Positions 2,425-45,743 of a stretch of 64,000 nucleotides of DNA are shown one piece after another; the stretch's first letter is position 1, and the number at the start of each line of letters is the position of its first letter. The position numbers and the translations under genes were made by a program. The notes beneath the pieces are model-generated. The model searched no databases. It was not told the DNA's origin and saw nothing but the letters and a program-made list of their open reading frames with translations. The stretch comes from Myxococcales bacterium (lineage in GTDB: Bacteria; Myxococcota_A; Polyangia; Polyangiales; JADJMO01): NCBI GenBank assembly GCA_016709545.1, contig JADJMO010000001.1, positions 68,372 through 132,371 of the forward strand, given 5' to 3'.

Positions 2425-4053
2425 ATGCACCCCATCCTCTTCAAGATCCCCCTTCCTCACTGGAAGGTCCCGTATCCTGCGTTCGCCGACTCGCGGGCCG
2501 TGATCTACATGATCGTGGGTCTCGTGCTGGGACTCCTGGCGCCCTCCATGATCGAGGCGGTCAAGAAGTACCACTGGGCGATCACCGGCGCGGCCGGCCT
2601 GCTCGTGGGCTTCCTCGCCACCAAGGTGATGAAGATCCCCTTCCAGTACAAGATGGAGCGCTACGAGCTCTCCACGTTCCCGATCTACGCCTACGGCGTG
2701 ATGCTCGGGCTGTCGCTGGTCGTGGGCTGGTACATCTCGCTCACCATCGCCAAGGACGACGGCCTGCCGCGCGAGACGATGGCCAACAACTACGTGTTCA
2801 CCGCGATCATGGCGATCCTCGGTGCACGCGTGCTGTTCATCGTCACCAACCTCGACTCGTTCGAGTCGTGGAAGGACTGGTTCGCCATCCGCTCGGGCGG
2901 CCTCGTCGCCTACGGCGGGTTCCTCGGCGGGTTCCTCGGCAGCTGGTACTACTGCGCGAGCAAGAAGGTCCGCCTGATGGCCTGGGCCGACGCGGCAGTG
3001 CCCTCGCTGGCGAGCGGCCTCCTGTTCACGCGGCTCGGCTGCTACATGTACGGCTGCGACTTCGGCAAGCCCCTCAAGGAGGGCGCGCCCAAGCTGCTCG
3101 AGAAGCTCGGCACGTTCCCCGAGTGGTACTACGACCAGCGCGCGGGCAAGTACCTCGACGAGCAGTCGCTCCACCAGCTCCTCTCGGATCCGGCCAACAA
3201 GCCGCAGATCCTCATGAAGGCCCGCGAGAAGGAAGGCGAGCCGTTCTTCCGCGGCGAGATCTTCCTGCTCTTCACGTTCGGGTACGGCGTCCTGCGCTTC
3301 ATGCTCGAGATGGTCCGTGACGACGCCGAGCGCGGCACCTACGGCCCGCACTTCGAGCCGCACATCATCTACCCGGTGTGCCTCATGGTGCTCGCCCTCT
3401 CCTTCGTGTTCGGCCTCTCGAACATGGTCTCCGAGCGCTTCCGCGTCATCGCCAAGTCGATCGCCATCCTGATCCCGCTCGCGGTGTTCATGGTGCTGCG
3501 CCCGGCCAACAAGTTCACCGCCGTCGACATGGTGCAGCTCTCCACCTCGCAGTGGATCGCGCTCCTCACGGGCGCCATGGCCGCCGTCTACTACCGTCGT
3601 GGTCTCGACATCGCGGTCGCCGACCCGGCGGTCGCGGCCGACCTCGGCGCGGGCGTCCCCGAGCTCGTCGAGATGGAAGCAGCGATGGCCCGCGGCGAGG
3701 AGTGGAAGAAGGACGAGGGCGACGACGAGGACGAGGAGTCCGACGAGCCCGCGGCCGACGAGAAGGCTGCTGGCGAGAAGGCCGCCGACAAGAAGGCCGC
3801 CGACAAGAAGGCCGCCGACAAGAAGCCGGCGGCGAAGCCGACCACGAAGGCCGACGACGACGAGGAGGAGGCCGAGAAGCCCGCCGCCAAGAAGTCCGAG
3901 CCGGAGAAGAAGGCCGAGCCCAAGAAGGACGAGTCCAAGAAGGACGAGCCCAAGAAGGACGAGTCCAAGAAGGACGAGCCCAAGAAGGACGAGCCCAAGA
4001 AGGACGAGCCCAAGAAGGACGAGAAGAAGGCCGACGAGGGCGAGGACGAATGA
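2425..4053 (+). CDS. lgt: Prolipoprotein diacylglyceryl transferase Lgt with an N-terminal 2-TM extension and an approximately 150 aa low-complexity acidic/Lys-rich C-terminal tail
   Basis: The Lgt core is recognisable (YAYGVMLGLSLVVGW..., GGLVAYGGFLGGFLG, CYMYGCDFGKP). The tail is made of AADKK and KKDEPK repeats. It is in frame with track ORF 541..4053, starting at the internal ATG 2425. Confidence 0.8.
   Translation: MHPILFKIPLPHWKVPYPAFADSRAVIYMIVGLVLGLLAPSMIEAVKKYHWAITGAAGLLVGFLATKVMKIPFQYKMERYELSTFPIYAYGVMLGLSLVVGWYISLTIAKDDGLPRETMANNYVFTAIMAILGARVLFIVTNLDSFESWKDWFAIRSGGLVAYGGFLGGFLGSWYYCASKKVRLMAWADAAVPSLASGLLFTRLGCYMYGCDFGKPLKEGAPKLLEKLGTFPEWYYDQRAGKYLDEQSLHQLLSDPANKPQILMKAREKEGEPFFRGEIFLLFTFGYGVLRFMLEMVRDDAERGTYGPHFEPHIIYPVCLMVLALSFVFGLSNMVSERFRVIAKSIAILIPLAVFMVLRPANKFTAVDMVQLSTSQWIALLTGAMAAVYYRRGLDIAVADPAVAADLGAGVPELVEMEAAMARGEEWKKDEGDDEDEESDEPAADEKAAGEKAADKKAADKKAADKKPAAKPTTKADDDEEEAEKPAAKKSEPEKKAEPKKDESKKDEPKKDESKKDEPKKDEPKKDEPKKDEKKADEGEDE
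3781..4030 (+). repeat. In-frame tandem 15 and 18 nt coding repeats (AADKK and KKDEPK units) in the lgt 3' region
   Basis: aaggccgccgacaag is repeated about 3 times and aagaaggacgag(c/t)ccaag about 7 times. Confidence 0.6.
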
Positions 4054-4223: not shown

Positions 4224-5347
4224 TTGTCTTTGGGCACGGTCGAGAAATCCCGCCACCGCCGCCCGTGGACGCGCGACGCTGTCGGCATGTCGTACCTCGA
4301 TCCGCTGCTGCCGCTGGCCGACGTGCTCGACCCCGTCCTCGACCCGCTGACGGTCCGAGCGGTCCGACCGATCCTCCGCATCGTCGCGGGCCCTCCGCTG
4401 CGCGCCCAGCGCGCCGCCCTCCGCGAGCGTGCGCTGCCCGACGCGATCGCGCGCTGGTCGCCCCGGATCGACGCCCTCGCGGGTGGCTCGGTGAGCGAGT
4501 ACGACGCGACCGTCGGCGCCGCGGTCGCCGACCTGCGCGGGGACGCCGAGGCCCAGGTCGTCGAGGGAGCGATCGAGCGCGCCGCCCACGCCTTCGACCG
4601 CGCCTGGTACGCGAACGACCCCGAGTGGATCGACGACCCACGCCTCCCGCGCGACGTGCGCGTGCGCGCGCTCGACCGGCTCGATCGACTGAACGAGACC
4701 ATCGGCGCGTACGAGGCGTTCTTCGCGGCCATCGAGCCGCTGGTCGAGCACGCGCGACGGTCGGGGGTCGAGTGCCCGACCCTCGTGGATCTGTGCAGCG
4801 GCCACGCCATGTTCGCCGTGGCGATGGCCCTGCGATTCGGGGCGCGCGAGGGCCGCTGCCGGGTGATCGCCACCGACCTCGTGCCCGAGTACCTGGGGAT
4901 CGGCGAGGCCCACGCGCGCCGGCTGTTCCTCCCCGAGAGCGCGCTCGCGTTCGTGCCCCACGACGCGCTCGATCTCGCCTCGCTGCCCGCGAAGATCGGC
5001 GGCCCGATCGACGTCGTCACCTGCACGCAGTCGATTCACCATTTCCCGCCGGGCTTCGTCGCGCGGATGCTGGGCGCGGGGCCTCGGCGGCGCGCAGCGG
5101 GGCCGTGCTCGTCGACGGCGAGCGCAACGCCGTCGCGGGGGTCACCATCACGCTGCTCTCCGCGTTCATCGGGCGCCTGGGCATGCCCATCGTCCACGAC
5201 TCGTTCGTGTCGCTCCGCCGCATGTTCACCGAGCAAGAACTGGCGCTGATCGCCGCGCTCGCGCGCGACGACGACGGACGCCCCCTCGAGGTGGAGCGCG
5301 GTTGGCTCTCCCCCGGCCACGTGTTCGTCCGCGCCACGACCGCCTGA
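4224..5347 (+). CDS. Class I SAM-dependent methyltransferase-like protein with an apparent -1 frameshift in a G-run near 5080
   Basis: Track ORF 4224..5249 carries VDLCSGHAMFAVAMALRF...RVIATDL...IDVVTCTQSIHHFPPGFVARML. The C-terminus GAVLVDGERNAV...GWLSPGHVFVRATTA* continues in the frame of ORF 3599..5347. The start is uncertain; MSYLD at about 4287 is also possible. Confidence 0.5.
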
Positions 5348-5352
5348 GACAA

Positions 5353-5402
5353 GTGAGCGCAGTGAACAGCGGCCGCCTCCATGGGGCCGCTACAGCCAAC
5401 AA
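5353..5402. repeat. REP-like palindromic element, copy 1 (imperfect), directly after the methyltransferase stop
   Basis: gtgagcgcagtgaacagcggccgcctccatggggccgctacagccaacaa. It is nearly identical to 6867-6917. Confidence 0.6.
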
Positions 5403-5471
5403 AAGCGAGAGGGCCACCATCGCTGGCGGCCCCTCGTCACGTCACTCGTCAGATCTGAGGACGGCCGGAAA

Positions 5472-6149
5472 TCACGGGCAGACGGTGAAGTAGCCCGTGC
5501 TCGGCTGGACCTCGCCCGCACCCACGTAGATGGCCTTGCCGGCCGAGGTGCTGAGGTTGAAGGTCACGCACTGGTTGTCGCTCGTGGTGAAGTCGAAGCC
5601 GTCGAGGTGGCCCTGGGTGTCGAACGCGAACCACAGCGCCTTGCCGTTGGTCTTGAGGCGATCGTTCATCTCGAGGCGGGTGCCCTTGACCATGGCGATG
5701 TTGCCACCCACCGACTTCACGGTGCCGTGGAAGCGGTGGAGGTACTTCTTGGTGGTGGTGCGCACGTGCCACCAGCCGTTGCTGTCACGCCAGATCCAGT
5801 ACGCGGCGGGCGCGCTCGGGTGGAGGTGGGGCGGCTGACCCGAGGCCACGGAGTTGTTGGTGGGCTGCGGCGGCGTGGGCGGCGGGGCGTACTCGGTGAC
5901 CACCGGCTGGTTGACCGGGAACTGATCCACGCCGGCCGAGACCGGGGCTCCGACCACGGGGCCAGGGCCGGGCGCAGGCGCAGGCGCGGGCGCCACGGCC
6001 GGTCCGGGCGCGGGGGCAACAGGCGGAGGCGCCGCGGCCGGCGCCGGGGCGGGCCGGGGGCTGTTCGTGTGATCGACGACCCGCACGGTGCAAGCGGTCA
6101 GGGCCAGGAGCGGAAGGACGGCAAGAAGGTTGCGCATGGTTCCTCGCAA
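5472..6149 (-). CDS. Lipoprotein with a Pro/Ala-rich linker and a C-terminal beta-rich domain
   Basis: ORF 225 aa with lipobox LALTAC. It has a PAPAPA linker and ends FTVCP. Confidence 0.6.
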   Translation of the reverse strand: MRGTMRNLLAVLPLLALTACTVRVVDHTNSPRPAPAPAAAPPPVAPAPGPAVAPAPAPAPGPGPVVGAPVSAGVDQFPVNQPVVTEYAPPPTPPQPTNNSVASGQPPHLHPSAPAAYWIWRDSNGWWHVRTTTKKYLHRFHGTVKSVGGNIAMVKGTRLEMNDRLKTNGKALWFAFDTQGHLDGFDFTTSDNQCVTFNLSTSAGKAIYVGAGEVQPSTGYFTVCP

Positions 6150-6365
6150 GGTGAGCCGGACGTGAGCCTACCTTCGACCGGGGGAGGGTGGGGCCTATTC
6201 ACCCATTCCCAGGAATGACTCTTCACCACGGGAATATTGTCCGGCTCCGGCGTTGACCCCCCCCTCGTCGGGCGCTAACCGCTCCACCCCCCGCGGAGGG
6301 AATCTCCCCTCGGCGGCCGTGACCCACACGCGGGTCGACCCGCGTACACCCGGAAGAGCAAGCCC

Positions 6366-6848
6366 ATGGCCAAGACCCCCTCCCAGATCGTCAAAGAGAA
6401 GTTCGGCGACAAGAAGAAGCTCGTCGAGGCCGTGCAGAAGTTCGTCGGCGACGCCCTCTGGGTCCCCCGCCTCAACGAGAGCAAGGGCCTGGCCCACGTC
6501 TCGAACGCCAAGCTCCTCCGCCTTCTCGACACCTTCACCACGGTCGAGACCAAGTGGGGCACGCGCGCCAAGCTGATCGACGCCGTCATCGAGGCCGCCG
6601 GCAAGACCAAGGACACCGGCTTCCGCACGAGCATCGAGGGCTGGCCGGTCCCGCGCCTCCTCGACGCGCACCAGTCCTACGCGCGCCGCAACGGCAAGGC
6701 GAAGACCGAGGCCAAGCCGGCCGAGAAGAAGGCCGCCAAGGCCGAGGCCGCCCCCGCCAAGGCCGCCGCCAAGAAGGCGCCCGCCAAGGCCGAAGAGAAG
6801 CCGGCCGCCAAGAAGCCGGCCGCCAAGAAGCCCGCCGCCAAGAAGTGA
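6366..6848 (+). CDS. Hypothetical protein with a histone H1-like Ala/Lys/Pro-rich C-terminal tail (possible DNA-binding protein)
   Basis: ORF 160 aa. A globular N-domain is followed by an (A/K/P/E)-rich tail ...PAAKKPAAKKPAAKK. GC3 is high. Confidence 0.6.
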   Translation: MAKTPSQIVKEKFGDKKKLVEAVQKFVGDALWVPRLNESKGLAHVSNAKLLRLLDTFTTVETKWGTRAKLIDAVIEAAGKTKDTGFRTSIEGWPVPRLLDAHQSYARRNGKAKTEAKPAEKKAAKAEAAPAKAAAKKAPAKAEEKPAAKKPAAKKPAAKK

Positions 6849-6866
6849 GCGGAGCGAGCCGCAGGC

Positions 6867-6917
6867 GCGCGCAGTGAACAGCGGCCGCCTCCATGGGCGG
6901 CCGCAACAGCCAACAAG
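6867..6917. repeat. REP-like palindromic element, copy 2 (perfect 9-bp arms gcggccgcc/ggcggccgc), after the stop of the 6366-6848 gene
   Basis: gcgcagtgaacagcggccgcctccatgggcggccgcaacagccaacaag. It contains NotI and NcoI sites. Confidence 0.6.
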
Positions 6918-6940
6918 TTTCTAGAGCGAGACGTGCTGGA

Positions 6941-6972
6941 GCGGCCCAACTCGGGCCGCTTCGGCGTTTTTG
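6941..6972 (+). terminator. Putative intrinsic terminator
   Basis: GC stem gcggccc/gggccgc with loop aactc, followed by ttcggcgttttt. Confidence 0.4.
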
Positions 6973-7027
6973 TGCCCGGCGGGCCGAGAAGTTTGCCGGA
7001 GCCCCCCCCGACCGTTAGACCACCACC

Positions 7028-7486
7028 ATGGCCGTCGGTCCTGCTCGTGCCCTCGCGCTCGGCACGGCGCTCGCGTTCGTCGCGTGCGCCGGTGCCAAGG
7101 AGCCCGCGGCCCCCTCGCGGCTCGCGCTCAAGGAGTCCTCGGCGCCGCCGATCGAGGCGCAGCCCAAGGACTCCGTCTCGCGCGAAGCCGTCGACATGGC
7201 CGTCGCCGGCGGCCTCGGGAAATTCCTCACCCACGTCGAGGTCGACCCCGAGCTCGACGACAAGGGCAAGTTCGTCGGCTGGCGCGTCGTCGCGCTGCAC
7301 GGCGACATGTGGAAGGGCGTCGACGTGCAGGTCGGCGACGTGATCACCCGCGTGAACGGCTTCCCCATCGAGCGCGACTACCAGGCCGACAAGGCCTTCC
7401 GCTCGCTCGGCGTGGCGAGCGAGATCCGCGTCTCGATGATCCGCAACGGCGAGAAGCGCGAGCTGCGCTTCTCCATCGTCGGATAG
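7028..7486 (+). CDS. PDZ domain-containing lipoprotein
   Basis: ORF 152 aa with lipobox LAFVAC. It has a PDZ-like segment VDVQVGDVITRVNGFPIE. Confidence 0.6.
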   Translation: MAVGPARALALGTALAFVACAGAKEPAAPSRLALKESSAPPIEAQPKDSVSREAVDMAVAGGLGKFLTHVEVDPELDDKGKFVGWRVVALHGDMWKGVDVQVGDVITRVNGFPIERDYQADKAFRSLGVASEIRVSMIRNGEKRELRFSIVG

Positions 7487-18805: not shown

Positions 18806-19537
18806 ATGTCCCTAGACCGGACACCCAGTCGCTCCATACTTGACCTCCGTCGATCCAAGACTACGCTCAATCAAGTGGCGAAGCACCCCGTCCAGCTCGA
18901 GCTCCAACGCACCCACGGGTGGGGTGGTCGTCGTCCGGGCGCCGGACGTCCGCGCGTCGCGCCGCGGCCGCTCGTCCCCCACCGCACCCGACCGCCTCAT
19001 GTGGGGTGGGCGCCGGTGCACCTCACCCTCCGGTGCATGTCGGGGCTGCCCTCGCTGCGCTCGATGGAGGTGTTCCCGGCGGTCGTCCGCGCGCTGCGCG
19101 CGGCCCAGCGCGGCACCTTTCGTGTCATCCACTTCTCCGTGCAGGACAACCACGTGCACCTACTGGTGGAGGCGAACGATTCCAGCGCCCTTCGGGCGGG
19201 CGCGCGCTCGCTCGGCATCCGTCTCGCGCGCGCGGTCAACCGCGCCTGCGGCCGCAAGGGCCGCGTGCTCGACGACCGCTACCACACCCGCGCGCTCCGC
19301 ACGCCCCGCGAGGTCCGGTTCGCGCTCGCCTACGTGCTCTTCAACTTCAAGAAGCACCAGGTGCGCGTGCCGACCCTGCTCGACCCGTGCTCGTCGGCGC
19401 CGTGGTGCGATGGCCTTCGCGATCGCCGCGGAGCGCCGCTCGACGTGAGCACACCTGTCGTCGCGGCCCACACCTGGCTCGCCCGGGTGGGCTGGCGCCG
19501 CCACGGCCTGCTCTCCCCGCACGAGCGTCCGGCCTGA
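18806..19537 (+). CDS. IS200/IS605-like HuH Y1 transposase (REP-associated tyrosine transposase-like) as a single ORF
   Basis: In frame within track ORF 18185..19537. It has the HuH motif VIHFSVQDNHVHLLVEA and an RTHGWGGRRPGAGRP N-motif typical of a Myxococcales transposase family. The first 70 nt are AT-richer than the rest; an alternative GTG start is at 18875. Confidence 0.6.
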   Translation: MSLDRTPSRSILDLRRSKTTLNQVAKHPVQLELQRTHGWGGRRPGAGRPRVAPRPLVPHRTRPPHVGWAPVHLTLRCMSGLPSLRSMEVFPAVVRALRAAQRGTFRVIHFSVQDNHVHLLVEANDSSALRAGARSLGIRLARAVNRACGRKGRVLDDRYHTRALRTPREVRFALAYVLFNFKKHQVRVPTLLDPCSSAPWCDGLRDRRGAPLDVSTPVVAAHTWLARVGWRRHGLLSPHERPA

Positions 19538-44398: not shown

Positions 44399-45743
44399 TC
44401 ACGGGCTCGGCGCGAGGGCGACGCCCTTGAAGACCGTGTTGGTCGCTGCGGTGGCCACCGTGCTGCCGGTCGCGATCGCGGTCGTGCTGGCGATCGGATC
44501 GCGGAGCGCGACGATCCTGGGCGGCGTCTCGCCGGTGGTGACCACCGCGACGAGGTCCGCGCCGTCTACCCACGCGGCGAGGCCGACGCAGCCGGTGGCC
44601 GAGGCGAGGTGGGTGGCCTTGAGGGTCCAGGTGGTGCTCTCGAGCCGCCACTTCTCGAGCCCCTTGGCGCTGTCGCAGAGCAGGATCGTGTCGATGCCCG
44701 CGGTCGCGTCAGTGTCGAACGCCGCGACGCCGTAAGGCGAGGCGCCGGTGACGGGGCCGTTGACCTTGGTGAACGGGGTGGTCGGCGTGGTGGTCGGGAA
44801 GCCGGTGCCCACCTGCACGAGCCCGGGGGCGATGCCGCTCAAGCCGGCCGAGCCCGAGCCCGACGTCACATAGAGCTGCCCGCCGAACCCGCCCAGCCAG
44901 CGCACGTTGCCGACGGCCAGCGAGGTGACCGTGGTGCCGACGTTGTAGGTGACGCCCTTGTCCTCGGCGGAGATCCAGAACTGGCCGCCGTCCGTGGTGT
45001 AGGCGCTGCGGATCGACTTGCCGGCGTCGTTCGCGCCGGCGCCGAGGTCGCTGACGACGAACGTGCCCGCCGCGTTCAGCGTCACGCCCACGCGCTTGGT
45101 GGCCGAGGCCGCGGTGTCAGGAATGGCAGCAACGCCGGGGGCGGCGCGATAGGCCGCGAAGCTGACCAGCTTGCCGTTCCCCGACGACGTGAGGCTGCCG
45201 ATGCTGGAGCTGATGGGGAGGCTCACGTTGTCGGTGCCGGTGACGGGCGCCGCGACGACCGTGCCCGCGGTCCCGGTGGGCGCAGCGGTGTAGTCGATGG
45301 TGAAGGGAGCCAGGAAGATCGGCGCCGAGGTGCCGGTCGCGACGGCTGTGCCGTCGCCCACCCGCAGAGCCCACACGGTCTTGGTCTTGGTGGTCGCGGA
45401 GTCGCCGCCCGACTCCGAGGTCGAGTCCGTGCTGCTGGAGTCGGTCGCGGTCGAGTCGGTCGCGGTCGAGTCGGTCTTCGAGTCGGTTGCGGTCGAGTCG
45501 GTGGCGGTCGAGTCGGTCGCGCTCGAGTCGGTCGCCGTGCTGTCGACGACCGTCGAGTCGGTCGTCGTCGGTGTCCGTGCCGGTGTCCGTGCCGGTGTCC
45601 GTGCCGGAATCCGTGGCCACACCCGTGTCCCCGCTGCCCGTGTCGGGGCTGCCCGTGTCTTCGAGGGTGGTGCCCTCTTCTTCGGAGCAACCGACGAAGG
45701 CGAACGAGGAGACGACCAGGAGGAGGGAGGACAGCTTGCGCAT
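44399..45743 (-). CDS. Secreted lipoprotein with an N-terminal Thr/Asp/Ser tandem-repeat region; apparent frameshift near 45552
   Basis: Signal MRKLSSLLLVVSSFAFVGC (track ORF 45117..45743), then (TDTG)n. The frame then changes to ORF 44399..45622 (DSTATDS)n followed by a beta-rich globular domain. Confidence 0.55.
45415..45600. repeat. Coding tandem repeats (about 18 nt units tcgagtcggtcgcggtcgag, then gtgtccgtgccg x3) inside the lipoprotein gene
   Basis: Direct repeats are visible on the + strand from 45421 to 45596. Confidence 0.6.

Follow-up and report, generated by a model that had tools for sequence, protein, structure and literature searches.

What does it mean when the same GC-rich palindrome stands twice, in the same orientation, close to the ends of genes? 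The question is raised by a stretch of 64,000 nucleotides from a Myxococcales bacterium (assembly GCA_016709545.1, contig JADJMO010000001.1, positions 68,372 to 132,371 of the forward strand; hereafter the window, with positions counted from its first letter), which carries such a pair near positions 5360 and 6872. Short palindromic repeats have been described chiefly in Proteobacteria, and MIRUs (mycobacterial interspersed repetitive units) in mycobacteria. The original prediction, made from the letters of the window, assigned the pair to the repetitive extragenic palindromes (REPs) and bacterial interspersed mosaic elements (BIMEs), which are mobilised by REP-associated tyrosine transposases (RAYTs). 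It is shown here that the two copies are real and not a chance likeness, and that they represent a small family of repeats, not described before, which was found in a few uncultured Polyangiales and nowhere else. Members of this family follow an open reading frame (ORF) on its coding strand, with their 5′ end registered to its stop codon.

The repeat unit and its two copies in the window

The sequence shared by the two copies occupies positions 5360–5402 and 6872–6916 of the + strand. The first pair of coordinates stands as originally predicted, while the second had been drawn one base too long, to 6917. There is no difference between the copies over the first 26 nt; past this point, copy 1 has lost 2 nt (GC) of the right arm, not the single nucleotide counted before, and one other base is changed. 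The NotI and NcoI sites noticed earlier are both present in the palindromes. The 9-bp stem and 6-nt loop described for copy 2 also hold, though counting a G–U pair would give 10 bp and a loop of 4 nt; in copy 1, the fold persists with a bulge. According to shuffled sequences, 0.07 matches to an 18-mer of the 3′ half are expected in the window when as many as three mismatches are tolerated, and two are observed. When the family profile was run over the whole 64 kb with nhmmer, it found these two copies and nothing else significant, and sub-profiles gave no credible remnants. The match to copy 2 extends over 6842–6921 (E = 4e-22), that is, well beyond the palindrome.

Both palindromes are indeed parts of a longer unit of 66–72 nt, of which only the 3′ two-thirds had been seen and the 5′ module overlooked. 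The unit starts with AAG-TGA and continues through a GAGCGAGC-rich 5′ module, the motif AGTGAAC and a GC hairpin of 9–10 bp to a tail, CAGCCAACAAG(TGA). Alignment of 27 distinct copies gives the consensus AAGTGA(A/G)CGGAGCGAGCCG(G/C/A)AGGCGAGCGC-AGTGAAC-AGC for the 5′ part and [GGCCGCC-TCCAYG-GGCGGCC]-GC-(A/T)(A/C)CAGC(C)AA(C)AAG(TGA) for the 3′ part. The palindrome, GCGGCCGCC-TCCAYG-GGCGGCCGC, forms a stem-loop with a stem of 9–10 bp. AAGTGA stands at both ends of complete units, and the shorter motif AGTGA recurs in the left flank, directly 5′ of the hairpin and at the right end; the unit has no terminal inverted repeats besides the single hairpin.

In the window, the unit is intact at copy 2 (6843–6917, +), which lies between the stop codon that ends a gene for a Lys/Ala-tailed protein of 160 aa (6366–6848, +) and an intrinsic terminator. 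The AAG-TGA junction (6843–6848) is both the last Lys codon with the stop of this gene and the 5′ end of the repeat. It is followed by the 5′ module GCGGAGCGAGCCGCAGGCGCGCG (6849–6871), recognised from the alignment of the 27 distinct family units and by nhmmer, and by the core (6872–6917), made up of CAGTGAACA (6872–6880), the left arm (6881–6889), the loop (6890–6895), the right arm (6896–6904) and the tail AACAGCCAACAAG (6905–6917). Copy 1 (5351–5402, +) is decayed: AAGTGA (5351–5356) is followed by what is left of the 5′ module after a loss of about 20 nt, a left arm (5369–5377), a loop (5378–5383), a right arm that is 2 nt short (5384–5390) and the tail TACAGCCAACAA (5391–5402). It sits between convergent genes, namely a methyltransferase gene on the + strand and a gene on the − strand (5472–6149), so the earlier description of the adjoining genes as free of convergence is wrong for this copy.

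The motif aagTGAgcg does precede both copies, as had been noted, but it relates differently to the two genes. The copy 2 motif is found 24 nt before the core recognised originally, and its TGA (6846–6848) is the true stop of the 160-aa gene. At copy 1, the TGA of the motif (5354–5356) is not the stop of the methyltransferase gene; the true stop (5345–5347, +) stands 9 nt upstream of it in the same frame, which places it 6 nt before the AAGTGA of the repeat.

Distribution across genomes

When 185,579 species-representative genomes were scanned for an exact pattern, 77 stretches matched. True members, as detected by the exact core pattern, occur only in two metagenome-assembled genomes (MAGs) of Polyangiales/Myxococcales, JAEUKC01 (8 contigs) and CAZUZY01 (13 contigs), and the other stretches are chance matches within coding regions of Actinobacteria, Pseudomonas and others, with unrelated loops and no similarity in the flanks. 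In these two sister Polyangiales MAG lineages, the unit is found at at least 19 unrelated loci. The reading of the palindromes as dispersed repeats is thereby borne out, and with many more than two loci in the genomes, a local duplication is excluded. The window itself is 98.7% identical to contig L001 of GCA_964269395.1 and 93.7% identical to contig L013 of JAEUKC01.

A second scan, of JGI metagenomes, used a pattern on the 5′ module and left the hairpin free. Only three further true hits were obtained, all from the same clade and all with an identical hairpin. Since even this hairpin-free scan added just three members of the same clade, the family is narrow and young. A search with Rfam 15 over positions 5000–7300 gave chance-level matches only (E ≥ 0.6, all far under the gathering scores).

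The genome scan also bears on another explanation of the pair, according to which it arose by local duplication or forms att-like direct repeats around a two-gene cassette of 1.5 kb (5403–6871). The window's only two copies are direct, 1.5 kb apart, and bracket two genes, and relatives differ in which genes this interval contains and how they are oriented. The scan nevertheless refutes this explanation, as the unit stands at more than 17 other loci beside unrelated genes. Moreover, the two copies evolve independently, because one relative (L116) has an element at the copy 1 site and no more than a remnant at the copy 2 site. Taken together, a cassette or a local duplication is very improbable.

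Registration to stop codons

A striking property of the family emerges at its 5′ junction, which was inspected at 19 independent loci. In 19/19, the element lies on the coding strand of the upstream ORF (the GC content at third codon positions, GC3, of these ORFs is 0.91–0.99). In 16 of them, the TGA of the element's AAGTGA is the ORF's own stop, so the upstream protein ends in Lys. In the three exceptions, the native stop is kept 0–9 nt upstream. These are L078 (GAG TGA G|TGAACGG), L048 (TTC TAG|TAAACGG) and the copy 1 site, which reads GCC TGA GAC AAG TGA in the window and L013 and GCC TGA G|TGAGCGG in L116. The tie to gene 3′ ends suggested earlier is therefore much tighter than supposed.

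Such junctions are far from common in the same DNA. AAG-TGA ends the upstream gene at 16/19 occupied loci vs. 8/158 other called gene ends within the same 203 kb (Fisher P = 3e-14). The preference reaches one codon further: AAG is preceded by a further AAG codon or by AAC at 12 of the 16 occupied sites, compared with 1 of the 12 AAGTGA sites that are unoccupied (P = 6e-4). The favoured context, AA(G/C)AAGTGA, equals the element's own 3′ end, ...CAACAAGTGA. Arrays of the unit face a convergent gene in 11/20 cases, and eight of these leave no more than 20 nt of other spacer.

The position after gene ends recalls integron attC sites. This candidate was rejected: by inspection, the units have no RYYYAAC or GTTRRRY core sites, and the hosts are ordinary chromosomal genes, e.g., of the sigma-70 family.

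Arrays, gain, loss and decay

Units occur singly or, in CAZUZY01 and JAEUKC01, in head-to-tail arrays of two to four, with periods of 66, 67, 69, 69, 71, 71, 72 and 72 nt. All of the multi-unit clusters (11/11) run head-to-tail on one strand, and no inverted pair is found among them. Units inside one array are identical or almost so, and partial 5′ modules are present at the 3′ ends of arrays. Short forms without the 5′ module are represented by L014, L044 and window copy 1. At one junction between a gene end and the first unit (L010, ~7146–7173, −), there is a 14-nt tandem duplication, GTGTGCAAGTGAAC, which may be a slippage product or an insertion scar.

The regular spacing of 66–72 nt in the CAZUZY contigs suggested a clustered regularly interspaced short palindromic repeat (CRISPR) array. 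It is not one, because the sequence between the hairpins, i.e., the would-be spacer, is identical from unit to unit. An in-frame translated repeat, or a signal for TGA read-through such as a selenocysteine insertion sequence (SECIS), was considered as well, given that the first four periods (72, 69, 69 and 66 nt) are all multiples of 3; four more periods (71, 72, 67 and 71 nt) show that there is no frame constraint.

Comparison of relatives reveals how the two window sites have changed. Over the 160-aa gene and the adjacent PDZ-domain gene, nucleotide identity to the window is 96.8% for L013, about 94.5–94.9% for L116 and about 92–92.3% for L084 of CAZUZY, which corresponds to the tree ((window, JAEUKC01), L116), CAZUZY. 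At the copy 2 site, the window, L001–L003 and L013 have the full unit. L116 keeps no more than a remnant, made up of the 5′ module, part of the right arm and GTGA; CAZUZY (L084, L081) has no element there (spacer of 108 nt vs. 180 nt), nor do orthologues of 55–80% identity. At the copy 1 site, by comparison, L013 and L116/L117 have a full-length unit, and the window, L001 and L002 have in common a loss of about 20 nt from the 5′ module. The right arm is intact in L001, L002, L013 and L116, the loss of GC being private to the window. A 78%-identical orthologue (L118) has no element at this site and uses its own terminator.

Small deletions found in the window only, of 1 nt at 5357 and 2 nt at 5384, deserve some caution. 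Relative to L001 and L013, the window also lacks 1 nt at ~5077, which moves the S-adenosylmethionine (SAM)-dependent methyltransferase gene (4224–5347, +) from frame 0 (4224–5249) to frame 2 (end at 5347). This frameshift is either a strain-specific pseudogene mutation or an assembly indel, and because it is private too, the other private indels of the window may be assembly errors. The gene between the two copies on the − strand (5472–6149), which ends at 5472, is conserved (221–225 aa) and encodes a Pro/Ala-rich lipoprotein-like product; it is on the opposite strand in one relative (L085, 567–1247, +) and missing in another (L087). The interval from the methyltransferase gene to the 160-aa gene is structurally unstable.

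The best-sampled array is located between a sigma-70 family gene and a convergent peptidase gene (PF02113). The same three units are present in five independent assemblies of the CAZUZY lineage (5/5; L119, 2758–2960, also L120–L124), while at L011/L097/L098, where two contigs break at the array and counts are unreliable, the numbers are 3, 1 and 2. The tail of the sigma-70 array (GC-TCTAGCC) supplies the TAG stop of the peptidase gene, whose product is longer by Pro-Ser-Gly. In the window species (L125, L126), the corresponding place (L125, 2767–3040) is taken by an unrelated 267-nt spacer with a different palindromic repeat. This second, unrelated repeat, CCCCGGGCTTCAGCCCGGGG(CACCGAC), is found in intergenic spacers of the same genomes (L051, 2417–2436; L125 and L126, 3002–3021, plus an imperfect copy ~30 nt past the stop of the sigma factor) and is absent from the window.

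Arrays of identical units raise the possibility that the family is not mobile at all. It could be a minisatellite-like motif that is spread by recombination or gene conversion at AAGTGA/GAGCGAG microhomologies and amplified by slippage. The 14-nt junction duplication in L010, the replaced spacer at the sigma-factor locus and the partial 5′ modules at array ends would all fit. Even so, near-identical units at 19 or more unlinked loci demand an efficient dispersal step, orientation and junction are uniform over these loci, and the loci occupied are not the same in the two sister species. Spreading by recombination and slippage alone is thus regarded as unlikely.

Terminators and a possible role at the RNA level

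The original prediction considered an mRNA stabiliser or a terminator hairpin. The latter role is doubtful. The stem of the repeat is followed by AACAGCCAACAAG and not by a T run, so the hairpin lacks the form of an intrinsic terminator; a terminator scan flagged only separate hairpins, at 6933–6967 (+) and 5433–5410 (−), and not the repeat. The canonical intrinsic terminator of the 160-aa gene (6933–6972, +, comprising the hairpin 6933–6967 and a T run) lies outside the repeat. The element-free L084 likewise has a terminator at this place, whose 3′ half and T run (GGGCCGCTTCGGCGTTTTTGTGCC) agree with those of the window and whose 5′ arm differs. The copy 2 hairpin is consequently not needed for termination at this site, since the terminator already existed before the element. 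The convergent − strand gene has a terminator-like hairpin of its own (5410–5433, −), whose T run (5409–5400) is in part the complement of the A-rich tail of copy 1.

One can imagine a more elaborate function, in which the unit is a cis-acting RNA device coupled to translation termination: a fixed distance between stop codon and unit would allow the terminating ribosome to determine the pairing partner of the left arm and loop (CGCCUCC), either the 5′ module (GGAGGCG) or the right arm, and this choice would set 3′-end formation, mRNA decay or ribosome rescue. Registration of the 5′ end to the stop codon in 19/19 loci is what such a device would be expected to show. In the unit of L062 (6143–6214), GGAGGCG is complementary to CGCCUCC of the left arm and loop, and the alternative fold is the minimum-free-energy structure, with an energy similar to that of the hairpin; in the short forms, the hairpin comes 10–16 nt after the stop. 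E. coli REPs located within ~15 nt of a stop codon reportedly lower expression via ribosome stalling, as described by Liang, Rudd and Deutscher in 2015. Nonetheless, a conserved alternative pairing was rejected: one fold shows it, and variants do not keep it, since the polymorphism of the module (GGAGG, GCAGG, GAAGG) and the GGAGCGAGC variant are uncompensated in the invariant loop. In addition, the genes bearing the element are functionally unrelated, copies decay by deletion with no replacement, and Rfam has no matches. An RNA device of this type is accordingly considered improbable. It may be added as a separate observation that GGAGGCG and CGCCUCC resemble Shine–Dalgarno and anti-Shine–Dalgarno sequences.

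Relation to REPs and RAYTs

Two superfamilies of REPs are defined by a GTAG or a CGTC tag, and REP termini often give flanking ORFs a stop codon; head-to-tail REP clusters occur as well (PMC3733652). A short GC-rich palindrome that is extragenic, dispersed and located at gene ends could therefore be a classical REP/BIME, including the paired form REPIN, moved by a RAYT. A candidate for the cognate enzyme is the Y1/HuH-like ORF at 18806–19537 (+), ~12 kb from the repeats, for which an HVH motif and weak similarity to NF047646 and Y1_Tnp speak. Both matches remain under the curated cutoffs (REP_Tyr_transpos NF047646, 36 bits, E = 5e-9, vs. 80; Y1_Tnp, 17.9 vs. 23 bits), which makes its earlier designation as an IS200-like HuH transposase too definite.

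The repeat also does not behave as a partner of this ORF. According to nhmmer, there are no family copies within 11 kb of it, and it has no flanking inverted repeats. A tblastn search of the ORF against all the family loci fetched returned only the ORF itself and no homologue, and a PDB sequence search found nothing relevant. No conserved GTAG/CGTC tag is present in the aligned units: the 5′ flank of the hairpin is always AGTGAACAGC, the 3′ flank varies, and the tetranucleotide beside the stem on the reverse strand is GTTG, GGAG, GGTG, AGAG or CGAG, with GTAG at the copy 1 locus only. Inverted pairs are absent, and the loci detected with the exact pattern, a lower bound, number tens rather than hundreds. 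With a sub-threshold ORF, no flanking copies, no tag and no inverted pairs, membership in the REP–RAYT class is unsupported, and this assignment, the central one of the original prediction, is quite unlikely to be right.

Probable origin of the family and its possible role

The family is probably a clade-restricted, non-autonomous REP/MIRU-like repeat that prefers gene ends of the type ...AA(G/C)-AAG|TGA. It would be, or recently have been, a non-autonomous mobile element integrating in one orientation at sites that resemble its own 3′ end, ...AA(G/C)AAG|TGA. In genomes of 70% GC (window DNA is ~70% GC), such sites would mostly be Lys-stop gene ends. Insertion would recreate the target at both ends of each copy, and because every copy regenerates the target in this way, arrays could grow via re-insertion or slippage. 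Insertions landing elsewhere would be removed by selection, and those at gene ends would survive. The element's position implies transcription into the 3′ untranslated region (3′ UTR), where the hairpin might passively hold up exonucleases or read-through, above all if convergent genes are separated by nothing but an array. Such a barrier, or plain selfish DNA, are the leading options for its role; most plausibly it is a barrier, and it may be neutral.

It is possible, although doubtful, that the element goes further and homes on stop signals as such. According to this idea, it integrates at Lys-TGA ORF ends and reconstitutes them, can hand a TAG to a convergent gene, and thereby does at stop codons what MIRUs do at start codons; the enzyme involved may be a single-strand or site-specific one that has so far escaped recognition and reads AGTGA. 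The presence of AAGTGA at both ends fits target duplication and equally a target plus the element's own end, and L084, the sole "empty" allele, fits both.

Several observations weigh against a mobile repeat with a preference for stop codons. The comparisons yielded no clean pair of filled and empty sites whose boundaries are unambiguous. At the "empty" CAZUZY site, the sequence is still AAGTGAGCGGA...GTGA, which may be the scar of a deletion, and the change at the sigma-70 locus is a whole-spacer replacement and not a simple insertion. No transposase or recombinase linked to the family was found; on the L070 contig, which has three element loci in 6 kb, there are kinase-like and ordinary ORFs with no evident transposase, as judged from the first 60 residues of each and with no Pfam scan, and there is no tRNA. 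The excess of in-frame gene ends among occupied sites (15 vs. 2 intergenic, compared with 6 and 6 for unoccupied AAGTGA sites tolerant of insertion) is moderately significant only (P ~0.002–0.04), with small counts and a crude GC3-based gene caller. The copy numbers (≥8 loci in one MAG and ≥13 in the other) are lower bounds, as they derive from an exact pattern and not from a whole-genome profile. The hairpin is invariant, so covariation lends no support to a selected structure of either RNA or DNA. Lastly, the proposed function is deduced from position.

Other observations in the window

The protein of 160 aa whose gene carries copy 2 belongs to a widespread uncharacterised family. It combines a conserved N-terminal domain with a histone-H1-like tail of AKKP repeats and has no Pfam match and more than 1000 homologues, mostly in Polyangiales metagenomes. 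Identical versions are encoded by three contigs, one each from an NCBI Myxococcales MAG, ENA and JGI.

Two coding-region tandem repeats with a 15-nt period were also noted. At 3706–4053 (+), such a repeat makes up the 3′ end of the Lgt (PF01790) gene and encodes a long Lys/Asp/Glu/Pro-rich tail of KKDEP-like units. The other, at 45404–45567, consists of GGTCGAGTCGGTCGC-like units.

Significance and comparison with known systems

The family extends the phenomenon of palindromic repeats to uncultured Polyangiales of activated sludge and soil and obeys an unusually clean positional rule, with sense orientation and a 5′ end registered to the stop at 19/19 loci. If this rule reflects the mechanism of insertion, it would offer a compact model of how a non-coding element can spread with minimal harm to genes, and it would point to a missing enzyme. 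There are practical consequences as well: the arrays break short-read assemblies (several contigs end within them), can be mistaken for CRISPR and alter annotated gene 3′ ends. Otherwise, the family is an incremental addition to a well-known class.

Like REPs, BIMEs and REPINs, the unit contains a short GC-rich extragenic palindrome, is scattered over the genome with a concentration at the 3′ ends of genes and in spacers between convergent genes, and is probably transcribed into 3′ UTRs. In contrast to them, it is a composite of a ~30-nt 5′ module and a hairpin, 66–72 nt in total, lacks the GTAG/CGTC tag, forms direct arrays only, and has no RAYT found so far. The loci found for it number tens (lower bounds) and not hundreds, and its orientation to the upstream gene is invariant.

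Palindrome-associated transposable elements (PATEs), which are derived from IS200/IS605, and miniature inverted-repeat transposable elements (MITEs) are likewise small, non-coding and hairpin-bearing, and stand in one orientation next to a short specific sequence. However, the family has no terminal inverted repeats beyond its single hairpin, and neither a master copy nor a TnpA was found.

MIRUs insert at start codons and carry an internal ORF coupled to the gene (PMC12548453). They resemble the present family in having units of 40–100 bp, direct tandem arrays, an intergenic location and the same orientation as the flanking gene. Because both stand in register with a translational signal of an adjacent gene, MIRU is the nearest functional analogue in that respect. 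The difference is that MIRUs are registered to the start of the downstream gene and the present family to the stop of the upstream one. No internal ORF is conserved in the family, as unit lengths of 67 and 71 nt break the frame, and there is no operon or coupling logic because over half of the arrays face a convergent gene. The family also has a strong hairpin, a host from a different phylum and, at the one locus sampled five times, a constant number of units. The stop-codon rule is striking, but nothing here is outside known biology: the family is a variant of the small hairpin-bearing intergenic repeats.

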